A stretch of DNA of 64,000 bases from an uncultured Draconibacterium sp. Lineage in GTDB: Bacteria; Bacteroidota; Bacteroidia; Bacteroidales; Prolixibacteraceae. Within the stretch, counting starts at the first letter, position 1; the number at the start of each line of letters is the position of its first letter. Location of the stretch: contig OY782038.1 in NCBI GenBank assembly GCA_963677575.1, forward strand, positions 1,916,195 to 1,980,194. The letters run 5' to 3'. Shown here piece after piece: positions 12,774 to 22,215 of the stretch. A program made the translations under genes and the position numbers. The notes under the pieces are model-generated. The model did not search any database, was not told the origin of the DNA, and was given only the letters and a program-made list of their open reading frames with translations.

Positions 12774-12801
12774 TTCCAGAAATGCATGTATTATAAATAC
12801 G

Positions 12802-12831
12802 AAAAAAGGCCGACATTTGTCGACCTCTTTT
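12802..12831 (-). terminator. terminator-like hairpin after tRNA-like element A; also faces the convergent peroxidase gene
   Basis: AGGTCGAC-AAAT-GTCGGCCT followed by a T tract on the minus strand. Confidence 0.65.
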
Positions 12832-12832
12832 G

Positions 12833-12907
12833 TGGGGAGTACTGGATTCGAACCAGTGACCCTCCCGATGCAAATCGGGATGCTCTGAACCAATAAGCTA
12901 AAACCCC
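12833..12907 (-). ncRNA. tRNA-Val-derived tRNA-like element A (no canonical anticodon arm)
   Basis: D arm, variable loop, T arm and 3' acceptor strand match the neighbouring tRNA-Val; anticodon arm is TCCCGAT-TTGC-ATCGGGA. Confidence 0.8.
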
Positions 12908-13143
12908 TCTATCAATTTCAGAATTGCACTTCTACTTTTCCAGTTTTTAAGTTGCATTTCACGTTTAATTGCATCACTTTTTTCTCCAAAAGTTTCATAA
13001 TATTTTAACTCCCATGGTTTCCCGGTTGACGTAAATCCTTTGTTAGATGAGTTATGACGCTGCAAGCGTCCTTCAACATCACTTGTAGAACCAATATAGA
13101 ATTTATTTAGTTTCTCTGAATACAAAATATAACAGTAATACAT
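12898..13143 (-). CDS. small GIY-YIG nuclease, intact copy A (81 aa)
   Basis: YCYIL..YIG motif, conserved Arg (RLQRH) and Glu (KRE); ATG start. Confidence 0.9.
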   Translation of the reverse strand: MYYCYILYSEKLNKFYIGSTSDVEGRLQRHNSSNKGFTSTGKPWELKYYETFGEKSDAIKREMQLKNWKSRSAILKLIEGF

Positions 13144-13157
13144 GATATTAAAATACG

Positions 13158-13187
13158 AAAAAAGGCCGACATTTGTCGACCTTTTTT
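13158..13187 (-). terminator. terminator-like hairpin after element B
   Basis: AAGGTCGAC-AAAT-GTCGGCCTT followed by a T tract. Confidence 0.6.
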
Positions 13188-13188
13188 G

Positions 13189-13264
13189 TGGGGAGTACTG
13201 GATTCGAACCAGTGACCCTCCCGATACAAATCGGGATGATCTGAACCAACTAAGCTAAAACTCC
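13189..13264 (-). ncRNA. tRNA-like element B
   Basis: as element A; anticodon arm TCCCGAT-TTGT-ATCGGGA; one D-stem mismatch. Confidence 0.8.
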
Positions 13265-13500
13265 TCTATCAATTTCAGAATTGCACTTCTGCTTTTCCAT
13301 TTTTTAAGTTGCGCTTCGCGTTTTATTGCTTCACTTTTTTCCTCAAAAGCTTCATAATATTCTAACTTCCACGGTTTTCCAGTTGATGTAAATCCTCTAT
13401 TTGAATTATTATGTCGTTGTAAACGACCTTTCACGTCTCCCGTAAAACCAATATAGAATTTATCTAGTTTCTCTGAATACAGAATGTAACAGTAATACTT
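13255..13500 (-). CDS. GIY-YIG nuclease copy B, start codon mutated (ATG to AAG); possible pseudogene
   Basis: 66/81 aa identical to copy A; the only nearby in-frame start is TTG 13515 at the end of the hairpin T tract. Confidence 0.75.
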   Translation of the reverse strand, partial: KYYCYILYSEKLDKFYIGFTGDVKGRLQRHNNSNRGFTSTGKPWKLEYYEAFEEKSEAIKREAQLKKWKSRSAILKLIEEF

Positions 13501-13513
13501 GACATTAAAATAC

Positions 13514-13544
13514 AAAAAAAGGCCGACTTTTGTCGACCTTCTTT
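13514..13544 (-). terminator. terminator-like hairpin after element C
   Basis: AAGGTCGAC-AAAA-GTCGGCCTT followed by a T tract. Confidence 0.6.
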
Positions 13545-13545
13545 G

Positions 13546-13621
13546 TGGGGAGTACTGGATTCGAACCAGTGACCCTCCCGATACAAATCGGGATGATCTG
13601 AACCAACTAAGCTAAAACTCC
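13546..13621 (-). ncRNA. tRNA-like element C
   Basis: same sequence as element B. Confidence 0.8.
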
Positions 13622-13856
13622 TCTATCAATTTCAGAATTGCACTTCTGCTTTTCCATTTTTTAAGTTGCGCTTCGCGTTTTATTGCTTCACTTTTTTCCT
13701 CAAAAGCTTCATAATATTCTAACTTCCACGGTTTTCCAGTTGATGTAAATTCTCTATTGAATTATTATGTCGTTGTAAACGACCTTTCACGTCTCCCCTA
13801 GAATCAATATAGAATTTATCTAGTTTCTCTGAATACAGAATGTAACAGTAATACAT
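13612..13856 (-). pseudogene. GIY-YIG nuclease copy C, frameshifted
   Basis: 245 nt versus 246 nt; 1-nt deletion near 13757 relative to copy B; YIG changed to YID. Confidence 0.88.
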
Positions 13857-13869
13857 GACATTAAAATAC

Positions 13870-13900
13870 AAAAAAAGGCCGACTTTTGTCGACCTTCTTT
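13870..13900 (-). terminator. terminator-like hairpin after tRNA-Val copy 2
   Basis: same sequence as the hairpin at 13514-13544. Confidence 0.65.
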
Positions 13901-13901
13901 G

Positions 13902-13976
13902 TGGGGAGTACTGGATTCGAACCAGTGACCCCCTGGGTGTAAACCAGGTGCTCTGAACCAACTGAGCTAACCCCCC
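13902..13976 (-). tRNA. tRNA-Val(UAC), copy 2
   Basis: full cloverleaf: GGGGGGT/ACTCCCC acceptor, GCTC/GAGC D stem, CCTGG-TTTACAC-CCAGG anticodon arm, ACTGG-TTCGAAT-CCAGT T arm. Confidence 0.97.
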
Positions 13977-14013
13977 AATATTTAAAAAATCATTAACAGT
14001 AATGAAGCACATT

Positions 14014-14044
14014 AAAAAAGAGGTCAATCAAAATTAACCTCTTT
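14014..14044 (-). terminator. terminator-like hairpin after tRNA-Val copy 1
   Basis: AAAGAGGTTAAT..ATTGACCTCTTT followed by a T tract. Confidence 0.6.
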
Positions 14045-14046
14045 CG

Positions 14047-14121
14047 TGGGGAGTACTGGATTCGAACCAGTGACCCCCTGGGTGTAAACCAGGTGCTCTG
14101 AACCAACTGAGCTAACCCCCC
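14047..14121 (-). tRNA. tRNA-Val(UAC), copy 1
   Basis: identical 75-nt cloverleaf to copy 2. Confidence 0.97.
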
Positions 14122-14170: not shown

Positions 14171-14178
14171 CAAATATA
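14171..14178 (-). promoter_or_regulatory. -7 promoter element for the tRNA-Val transcript
   Basis: TATATTTG matches TAnnTTTG, about 50 nt upstream of tRNA copy 1. Confidence 0.6.
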
Positions 14179-14220
14179 AAACCTATTTTCAGTTCTGCAA
14201 AAATTTTTTCAAGATTTTTC

Positions 14221-22047: not shown

Positions 22048-22106
22048 GTCTTCTTTGTGATTCTCTTTTTGTCAATTCAAAAATCCGTTATAACTTTGTC
22101 CCGATA

Positions 22107-22197
22107 TTTACGCAATGGGGTGTCCCGATAAAGCATCGGGACTGAGATTATACTCAAAGAACCTGATCCGGTTAGCACCGGCGTAGGGAGAGCGAAA
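22107..22197 (+). ncRNA. TPP riboswitch
   Basis: GGGGTG..CTGAGA..ATAC...GAACCTGATCCGGTTAGCACCGGCGTAGGGA aptamer core; boundaries approximate. Confidence 0.9.
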
Positions 22198-22215
22198 AGG
22201 ATTTGTTCCTACCTC

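Follow-up and report, generated by a model that had tools for sequence, protein, structure and literature searches.

Palindromic hairpins in place of the anticodon arm mark tRNA gene copies beside a small GIY-YIG nuclease gene in Bacteroidota

Three tRNA-like elements of an uncultured Draconibacterium sp. (Bacteroidota, Prolixibacteraceae) were analyzed within a window of 64,000 nucleotides (nt), which covers positions 1,916,195 to 1,980,194 of contig OY782038.1 in GenBank assembly GCA_963677575.1. The elements, here called A, B and C, are non-decoding copies of a neighbouring valine transfer RNA gene (tRNA-Val), and each closes one unit of a tandemly repeated cassette that also contains an open reading frame (ORF) for a small GIY-YIG nuclease. 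Where a tRNA has its anticodon arm the elements have a palindromic arm, and this arm is conserved beside the same small nuclease gene at many different tRNA genes across Bacteroidota. We tentatively interpret the arrangement as a selfish nuclease cassette resident at tRNA genes, whose hairpin would be a cis element, probably read as a DNA structure, and which would drive gene conversion and tandem amplification. The probability we assign to this interpretation is roughly 0.45.

A five-way alignment of the three elements with both tRNA-Val(TAC) genes of the locus bore out the first-pass annotation, which had described an exact exchange of the anticodon arm. Between ..GAGCA and GGGTC.., where both genes have the 17-nt arm CCTGG-TTTACAC-CCAGG, element A has TCCCGAT-TTGC-ATCGGGA, and elements B and C have TCCCGAT-TTGT-ATCGGGA. 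The T arm, variable loop and 3' acceptor strand are the same as in tRNA-Val and the D arm is off by one or two bases, also as described. Missing from that annotation was the alteration of the 5' acceptor strand, in which GGGGGGT has become GGGGTTT (A) or GGAGTTT (B and C), since the GIY-YIG ORF upstream runs into this strand with its last codons and TAG stop. This leaves a weaker acceptor stem, and the altered strands do not form a stem of 7 base pairs (bp) with the 3' strand ACTCCCC. The replacing 18-mer folds into a 7-bp stem with a 4-nt loop at -8.9 kcal/mol (z = -3.8), a stability reached by none of 200 shuffles. ARAGORN reports all three elements as 'tRNA-???' with a 2-nt anticodon and no identity, in keeping with the predicted loss of decoding ability. 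Scoring against the Rfam tRNA model (RF00005) gave 46.6 bits for element A and 32.9 bits for each of B and C, compared with 71.2 bits for the real tRNA-Val and a gathering score of 29. The elements thus exceed the gathering threshold, yet do so without the canonical 5-bp stem, 7-nt loop and 3-nt anticodon.

The pattern TCCCG-N3-16-CGGGA has four matches in the 64-kilobase (kb) window against 0.25 expected, and four were reached in 0 of 100 shuffles. The fourth match (TCCCGAT-aaagc-ATCGGGA, 22123-22141) was set aside, as it is the P2-type stem of a thiamine pyrophosphate (TPP) riboswitch, fits the consensus GCccc..gggGC of that stem and is probably a coincidence.

Relatives were collected by a protein-alignment scan with one genome per species, which gave 79 loci, 72 of them testable for an upstream tRNA. 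A real tRNA gene on the same strand lies 5' of the first ORF copy in 69 of the 72, with a gap of at most 130 nt in 61 and typically of about 45 nt. Nine anticodon types are found among the tRNAs upstream of the homologous ORF: Val-TAC (45 loci), Lys-TTT (9), Arg-TCT (7), Arg-ACG (2), Asp-GTC (2), and Pro-GGG, Pro-TGG, Ala-GGC and Glu-TTC (1 each). Aligning each upstream tRNA to the sequence after the ORF revealed a second copy of the local tRNA there. At the anticodon-arm position just past the ORF, 81 of 110 ORF copies are followed by an exact TCCCG..CGGGA arm, a pattern that simple arithmetic would place by chance in about 0.2% of windows of that size. The other 29 mostly have versions with one or two mismatches, including the doubly compensated TTCCG/CGGAA, and a handful are without any tRNA copy. 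The native anticodon stems of the neighbouring real tRNAs comprise 16 different sequences.

Outside the hairpin, the copies follow their neighbours. In the 31 nt 3' of the hairpin, 48 of the 81 copies match the local tRNA completely (100% identity) and 55 do so at 90% or more; the low values belong to copies with a second hairpin in the T loop. The D-arm side is likewise derived from the local tRNA. The stem is kept in the homologous GIY-YIG-linked elements, which agrees with the earlier proposal of a block replacement rather than point decay; random decay of the arm, with no conserved TCCCGA/TCGGGA stem, was looked for across these relatives and was not what they contain.

The first-pass annotation had also suggested a covariation analysis of the stem across homologous copies, in which the inner pairs proved to change compensatorily. 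Among 87 distinct interiors the first inner pair is A-T in 65, G-C in 12, C-G in 4, T-A in 1 and G-T in 3, giving 97.7% paired against a maximum of 84% in 1000 shuffles; the second is T-A in 48, C-G in 16 and A-T in 7, giving 94.7% paired against a shuffle maximum of 75%. A MAFFT alignment of 37 copies gave the same picture, with seven double changes at pair 6 (AU 30, GC 5, CG 1, UA 1), eleven at pair 7 (UA 25, CG 11, UG 1) and no unpaired cell at either. The T-arm pairs in this alignment vary along with the local tRNA. G-T pairs (4) are not commoner than A-C pairs (3), which, small as the numbers are, is what a palindrome pairing on both DNA strands would be expected to show. Overall, the hairpin has a stem of 7-9 bp, a loop of 3-5 nt and the clamp T-CCCG/CGGG-A. 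Ordinary tRNAs with a natural TCCCG/CGGGA anticodon stem exist (Val-TAC at locus L158, Val-CAC at L119 and Thr-CGT at L170), so the hairpin may descend from a real tRNA arm.

The rest of the tRNA fold is less constant. In many relatives the ORF reads through the D-arm region, leaving no 5' acceptor strand, and ends at one of three stops: the TAG within TTAGCTC, the TAG within ATAGAGC, or a TAA supplied by the hairpin loop (protein tail ..GSGHPD). At L004, L007, L014, L020, L025, L033 and L064, part of the T loop is taken up by another TCCCGA..TCGGGA hairpin whose interior differs, and a longer one is located in the D loop at L002 and L003. Because the acceptor strand is missing and the T and D loops bear hairpins in such relatives, the conserved entity is the hairpin with its locally derived tRNA flanks, and the cloverleaf is not conserved. 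The suggestion that the tRNA elbow is kept for RNase P and RNase Z, as in a tRNA mimic, accordingly fails as a general statement, the acceptor being damaged in the window and missing, or the T loop replaced, in relatives. Recognition of the hairpin by a nuclease, the other function that had been proposed, is the candidate reading we rank first.

The C-terminal tail of the nuclease is encoded by the tRNA copy at several loci (about 2730-2770 in L008, L009, L011, L016, L017 and L021; about 2725-2760 in L076) and differs by tRNA type. Two kinds of locus can be distinguished by their terminators. In one, the terminator after the copy equals that after the real tRNA. In the other, the upstream terminator is common to related cassettes and the downstream terminator is different and native-looking, as would be expected of an insert carrying a terminator of its own and doubling the tRNA; the arrangement is attL/attR-like, with no recombinase present.

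Within the window all features of the locus are on the minus strand. They are given below in the direction of transcription, followed by the riboswitch mentioned above.

14171..14201, minus strand: promoter-like site of the Bacteroidetes type, TTTG-N19-TATATTTG, 5' of the first tRNA-Val (pattern scan)
14046..14121, minus strand: first real tRNA-Val(TAC) of the locus (ARAGORN; Rfam, 71.2 bits)
13977..14045, minus strand: spacer that has a terminator of its own, followed by a relic of the start of the cassette ORF, TTTTAATGTGCTTCATTACTGTTAATGA compared with TTTTAATGTCATGTATTACTGTTACATT (sequence reading)
13901..13976, minus strand: second real tRNA-Val(TAC), which opens the tandem array (ARAGORN; Rfam, 71.2 bits; Tandem Repeats Finder)
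13871..13900, minus strand: terminator-like hairpin and T run, one of which follows every tRNA or tRNA-like copy
13618..13856, minus strand: frameshifted GIY-YIG pseudogene of unit 1 (two hidden Markov model pieces in different frames, with stops; no long ORF)
13545..13621, minus strand: tRNA-like element C, with hairpin TCCCGATTTGTATCGGGA at 13576-13593 (ARAGORN, Rfam, alignment, pattern scan)
13515..13544, minus strand: terminator-like hairpin
13255..13500, minus strand: GIY-YIG ORF B, with AAG where other copies show ATG (ORF and domain search)
13188..13264, minus strand: tRNA-like element B, with hairpin at 13219-13236 (ARAGORN, Rfam, alignment, pattern scan)
13158..13187, minus strand: terminator-like hairpin
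12898..13143, minus strand: intact GIY-YIG ORF A of 81 amino acids (aa) (PF01541, E = 4e-19; structure model)
12832..12909, minus strand: tRNA-like element A, with hairpin TCCCGATTTGCATCGGGA at 12863-12880 (ARAGORN, Rfam, alignment, folding)
12802..12831, minus strand: last terminator-like hairpin, then a short ORF-start relic (sequence reading)
22106..22206, plus strand: TPP riboswitch (67.4 bits)

Tandem Repeats Finder describes the array, which comes after two real tRNA-Val(TAC) genes, as 3.3 copies of a 357-bp unit with 92% matches (12790-13970; individual units are 356 or 357 bp). Each unit consists of a tRNA or tRNA-like copy, a terminator-like hairpin with its T run and the 81-aa GIY-YIG ORF, whose ATG lies about 14 nt past the T run and whose 3' end (last codons and TAG stop) overlaps the 5' acceptor strand of the next tRNA-like copy. 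For ORF A, the last four codons and the TAG lie within that strand of element A. One of the three nuclease copies is intact (A); B has the AAG start, and the copy adjoining the real tRNA-Val has a frameshift. ORF B may instead start from a TTG at 13515. The 3' end of a convergent glutathione peroxidase gene comes after the last terminator and relic, and the other flank is folC. Unitigs from an independent run on this strain, or on one nearly identical to it, span the array at depths of about 126-149 in the flanks versus 216-360 in the repeat pieces, which supports a multi-copy array. A search of sequencing runs turned up a genomic-type run of this organism and DNA metagenomes, none of them RNA. 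Close relatives of the encoded proteins indicate Draconibacterium.

Promoters were sought with a consensus of the Bacteroidetes sigma-A type, and matches to the sigma-70 consensus at the locus were discarded as not meaningful for Bacteroidetes. The pattern TTTG-N19-TAnnTTTG has a single match for the whole tRNA and cassette array, and the scan of the locus found no such promoter inside the repeat units or for individual ORFs. As the promoter-like site lies only 5' of the first tRNA-Val, the cassette ORFs are probably expressed by read-through. Since the spacer between the two real tRNA-Val genes holds a terminator and an ORF-start relic, the second of these genes looks like the downstream copy of a collapsed unit, so that a genuine additional tRNA gene may have arisen through the cassette. 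L002 and L003 have this relic as well.

Arrays among the relatives reach seven ORF copies, mostly intact, and ORF-less units of 77-111 bp are located between the real tRNA and the ORF in L003, L002, L053, L070 and others. A metagenome pattern scan with GCATCCCG-N3-14-CGGGAGGGTC returned at least 120 loci with at least 147 matches. Among the matches listed, 59 have the nuclease gene within 1.5 kb; 36 of those listed have an ORF ending just 5' of them, mostly within about 35 nt, and for another 36 the contig is too short for this to be judged. Many of the remaining matches listed are ORF-less arrays beside real tRNAs (Ala-TGC, Met-CAT, Lys-CTT, Pro-GGG and Val). Some ORF-less arrays lie 5' of the real tRNA, with a unit made up of leader, 5' half, hairpin and terminator. 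The hairpin is kept in every unit among the matches listed, whichever part of the tRNA remains.

Units of the ORF-less kind upstream of real Met and Ala tRNA genes can be seen at L150 (5200-5700) and L107 (13900-14551, reverse strand). At L150 a loss between two GG repeats has taken precisely 'TTAGAGCA + hairpin' out of some units. How many units there are, and of which kind, also varies among four Draconibacterium genomes at one and the same locus.

The order folC, tRNA-Val, cassette is common to Prolixibacteraceae and Polaribacter, with FolC proteins 47-68% and nucleases 56-76% identical to those of the window. Each copy at this locus matches the tRNA-Val T arm of its own genome. The flanks have tracked the local tRNA over long divergence, a case of concerted evolution, while the hairpin was never overwritten, which argues for selection on the hairpin. 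A rough tree built from the 80-aa proteins by neighbour joining contains several switches of tRNA type, with Arg-TCT in at least three places and Lys-TTT, Asp-GTC and Pro each in more than one, and the hairpin is retained through them.

Cassette loci were also encountered in assemblies labelled Actinomyces, Comamonadaceae and Paceibacterota (L056, L073 and L075). Those labelled Actinomyces and Comamonadaceae are probably mis-binned Bacteroidota contigs. The locus labelled Paceibacterota has a tRNA-Glu upstream and a real tRNA-Ser downstream, with no hairpin.

The 81-aa protein matches PF01541 with 69 bits (cut-off 22.6, E about 4e-19) and is a full-length catalytic domain, in which Y5, Y16-I17-G18, R26, H30-N31 and E62 are invariant in 28 sequences. 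A profile search of Protein Data Bank (PDB) sequences gave the UPF0213 entries 1zg2 (5e-7) and 1ywl (2e-6), then Slx1 (about 1e-4). The AlphaFold model has a predicted local distance difference test (pLDDT) score of 95.1, and its top Foldseek matches are 1zg2 and Slx1-Slx4 entries with template modelling (TM) scores of 0.6-0.7, I-TevI being weaker. By sequence and modelled fold, the protein is a minimal stand-alone GIY-YIG nuclease of the Slx1/UPF0213 type. It has the catalytic domain only, and so lacks the DNA-binding module for a long target site by which Seg-type homing endonucleases are recognized. The UPF0213/Slx1-like profile collects 2,182 clusters of 50% identity at E of 1e-10 or below. 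Neither of two other assignments held up: PADLOC gave only weak generic GIY-YIG matches (E about 1e-3) for a defence system, and NCBIfam only a sub-threshold match to a group I intron endonuclease.

A 2006 survey of the superfamily (Dunin-Horkawicz et al., PMC1564403) treats stand-alone prokaryotic Slx1-like domains as the minimal form, and reports fusions or operons with methyltransferases, one of them tRNA-specific, and no tie to tRNA genes. A Bacillaceae UPF0213 gene, kin of 1zg2, overlaps an upstream MTS methyltransferase gene by 4 nt (L200, 2264-3285; L201 and L202, 2273-3264), and this methyltransferase has a weak full-length likeness to TrmN (45 bits against a family cut-off of 350). 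TrmN is the tRNA1-Val m6A37 methyltransferase, which would be a second hint tying this GIY-YIG branch to tRNA-Val. With 45 against 350 bits, a link to tRNA-Val modification is kept as a lead and was not counted as evidence.

In the selfish-cassette interpretation, the unit comprises a terminator, the 81-aa nuclease gene without a DNA-binding domain, and a copy of the host tRNA with positions 27-43 swapped. The swapped arm, a G+C-rich palindrome of the form T-CCCG-(variable palindromic interior)-CGGG-A, would be the conserved cis element, and the three elements of the window would be downstream boundary copies of an amplified cassette. The Slx1-like nuclease would recognize and cut the folded palindrome as a DNA structure, be it a hairpin, a cruciform or, in single-stranded DNA, a four-way junction of cloverleaf-like shape, the invariant 5 bp lying beside the branch point. 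Recombination with the real tRNA gene next to it, or with a sister copy, would then mend the break or nick. Such a lesion and its repair would keep the tRNA-derived flanks identical to the local tRNA, would let arrays expand, contract and shed ORF-less units that keep the hairpin, and would allow rare moves to other tRNA genes through the D-arm and T-arm homology common to tRNAs. As the swap removes decoding, the extra copies would be harmless. The analysis itself shows the anatomy of the locus, the conservation and compensatory changes of the hairpin, the concerted evolution of the flanks and the protein family; action of the nuclease on the hairpin, DNA as the form in which it would be cut, and the ensuing recombination are our inference.

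Several points weigh against the scheme. Contact between protein and hairpin is deduced purely from their co-conservation, and an 81-aa catalytic domain has no obvious way to read 5 bp of sequence. The invariance of the outer 5 bp is partly built into the sets of copies chosen by pattern, so that the fair measure is the unselected 81 of 110. A cut at a site inside the element would, by itself, fail to explain spread to naive alleles. No empty site, empty allele or fresh insertion was seen among relatives retrieved by a protein query, which cannot return empty sites. A phage origin was dropped, as no relative was found among the 2.9 million viral contigs searched, and no vector was identified. 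At folC and tRNA-Val the cassette has the look of an old resident, passed on vertically and under purifying selection, and this would be unusual in a homing gene that is purely selfish. This long residence, together with read-through expression and the links of other UPF0213 proteins to tRNA enzymes, keeps a role in RNA as a serious rival.

That main rival, which we consider possible though distinctly less probable, places the action of the hairpin in the transcript. The GIY-YIG protein would bind or cleave tRNA-derived RNA (the 3' part of the ORF mRNA, or the ORF-less repeats), and this RNA would be an inhibitor as in type III toxin-antitoxin systems, an autoregulatory site, or a scaffold lending specificity to a nuclease without further domains. 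Every hairpin copy points the same way as the ORF and falls within one predicted transcript with it, the hairpin loop sometimes supplying the stop codon, and the units lack promoters, so that expression would come by read-through from the tRNA promoter. Many loci (L053, L070, L003, L027) have arrays with a terminator per unit 5' of the ORF, recalling toxI-terminator-toxN. Long retention of both ORF and hairpin at one locus under purifying selection would fit addiction or function. However, G-U pairs are not in excess over A-C, minimal loci have no hairpin copy 5' of the ORF, and the cloverleaf is not conserved. GIY-YIG enzymes characterised to date are, to our knowledge, DNases. Couplings of other UPF0213 proteins to tRNA methyltransferase-like genes, by fusion (PMC1564403) or by the 4-nt overlap in Bacillaceae, favour a role in RNA, but the TrmN likeness of the Bacillaceae methyltransferase is far under the family cut-off.

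A bolder proposal, which we regard as unlikely, is that the tRNA-scaffolded hairpin copy, as RNA or as folded DNA, is a dedicated cofactor or substrate that lends the 81-aa nuclease its specificity. Nuclease and copy would then form a self-propagating pair resident at tRNA genes, duplicating them and able to create real ones, of which the window's second tRNA-Val looks like an example.

Three further explanations are weaker than an RNA partner. Homing endonuclease genes usually adjoin a disrupted or altered target, and the swap matches exactly the tRNA-specific part of the gene; the nuclease might thus target native anticodon-arm DNA, with the swapped arm shielding the duplicate as in classical homing. 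This is improbable, as an intact tRNA gene with a native arm stands uncut about 45 nt 5' of nearly every nuclease gene. Any change would protect, yet the same stem recurs at nine tRNA types with compensatory changes, and hairpins are inserted in T and D loops too.

Still more doubtful is a hitch-hiking relic, that is, the functionless anticodon arm of an ancestral donor tRNA whose remainder was overwritten by gene conversion from the local tRNA. The real Val(TAC), Val(CAC) and Thr(CGT) tRNAs with the natural stem could represent such donors, and several Val-type copies retain TAC in the loop (L005, L007, L014). A functionless stem should decay, however, whereas the outer 5 bp persist where the nuclease is only about 50% identical and the inner pairs compensate; the loop has also shrunk to 3-5 nt, and independent hairpins with different interiors occur in the T and D loops of the same copy.

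Least credible is a processing or stability mimic, whose elbow would let RNase P or RNase Z punctuate the read-through transcript and release or stabilize the nuclease mRNA: the window copies exceed the Rfam tRNA threshold and can fold cloverleaf-like, and the ORFs have no promoter of their own, but the 5' acceptor strand is damaged in the window and many relatives lack it, several lineages have lost the T loop to a second hairpin, and processing needs no particular anticodon-stem sequence, yet no other part is as well conserved.

Among bacterial nucleases without a known role, stand-alone UPF0213/Slx1-like GIY-YIG proteins belong to the commonest. The locus gives this branch a habitat just 3' of tRNA genes, a candidate substrate (the 5-bp-clamped palindromic hairpin within a tRNA copy) and a footprint of arrays, ORF-less hairpin-tRNA repeats and concerted evolution with the host tRNA, the first such case as far as we found. 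With these three defined, function can be tested with short oligonucleotides. The cassette also bears on the expansion of tRNA gene families, and on whether nuclease-driven amplification of the kind known from phage SegB works in bacterial chromosomes as well.

The hairpin copies also matter for the annotation of Bacteroidota genomes. They score above tRNA covariance thresholds and, taken for ordinary tRNAs, would raise and skew the gene counts. tRNA finders give many hairpin-bearing copies odd identities, namely Ile-TAT, Tyr-GTA, Cys-GCA, Lys-TTT and Asn-ATT (misnamed copies include L012 2787-2862, L022 2845-2920, L048 2735-2810, L002 2737-2812 and others).

In the full-text literature, with subscription journals outside its coverage, no description was found of GIY-YIG genes tied to tRNA copies with a swapped anticodon arm; a GIY-YIG mention in a paper on the Bacteroidetes SOS response concerns a different protein. 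The closest experimental precedent is SegB of phages T4 and T6, a free-standing GIY-YIG homing endonuclease encoded in the tRNA gene cluster, which drives tandem amplification of tRNA plus segB in a recombination-dependent manner, with the tRNA's 5' end sharing microhomology with segB's 3' end (PMC13096335). As in the cassette with its arrays and its ORF/tRNA overlap, a GIY-YIG gene sits among tRNA genes, the tandem unit is tRNA plus nuclease, and the 3' end of the nuclease gene meets the 5' end of the tRNA. SegB is however a phage protein of the I-TevI/UvrC lineage with a DNA-binding part, whereas the cassette protein is a chromosomal 81-aa domain of the Slx1/UPF0213 type alone, and SegB units carry normal tRNAs, with no swapped arm or conserved hairpin reported.

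Slx1 and UPF0213 proteins (YhbQ/YazA-like; 1zg2, 1ywl) are the best profile and fold matches, and Slx1 cuts branched DNA, which would fit a hairpin or junction as substrate. Unlike the cassette protein, Slx1 requires Slx4 and has a RING domain. For UPF0213 no residence at tRNA genes, arrays or linked hairpin have been described, and the Bacillaceae gene lies in a housekeeping operon beside a methyltransferase.

Integrative elements that target tRNA genes prefer the anticodon and T stem-loops as sublocations, and in the cassette, too, the sequence changes at these places. They likewise leave an intact tRNA on one side (attL/attR), with its 3' part repeated in partial or altered form on the other side, and in the cassette a direct repeat of the 3' part of the tRNA is indeed present at the far end of the insert, identical to the local tRNA in the 48 of 81 copies noted above. 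In contrast to them, the cassette has no integrase or recombinase, GIY-YIG being the only ORF family in the 356-bp unit; its copy also holds a locally derived D arm, and a foreign conserved hairpin replaces the anticodon arm.

With REP/BIME-RAYT and IS200/IS605 elements the cassette shares short G+C-rich palindromes with conserved stems and variable loops, ORF-less copies and one small nuclease-type gene, and recognition of a folded DNA strand is the working model. Those elements use an HUH Y1 transposase instead of a GIY-YIG protein, and their hairpins are neither within tRNA copies nor confined to tRNA loci.

ToxIN, a type III toxin-antitoxin system, resembles the cassette in its tandem non-coding repeats, terminator, small nuclease gene and read-through expression. 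Tandem repeats and a terminator 5' of the ORF are found in array loci (L003, L053, L070), whereas minimal loci have only the real tRNA upstream. The ToxN/AbiQ endoRNase fold differs from GIY-YIG, and ToxIN repeats are 34-45 nt long and always upstream, unlike the hairpin copy of minimal cassette loci, which lies downstream only. Taken against these systems, the cassette could be a variant of the free-standing GIY-YIG selfish genes at tRNA loci, and it could be categorically new if the hairpin copy is a dedicated nuclease cofactor.

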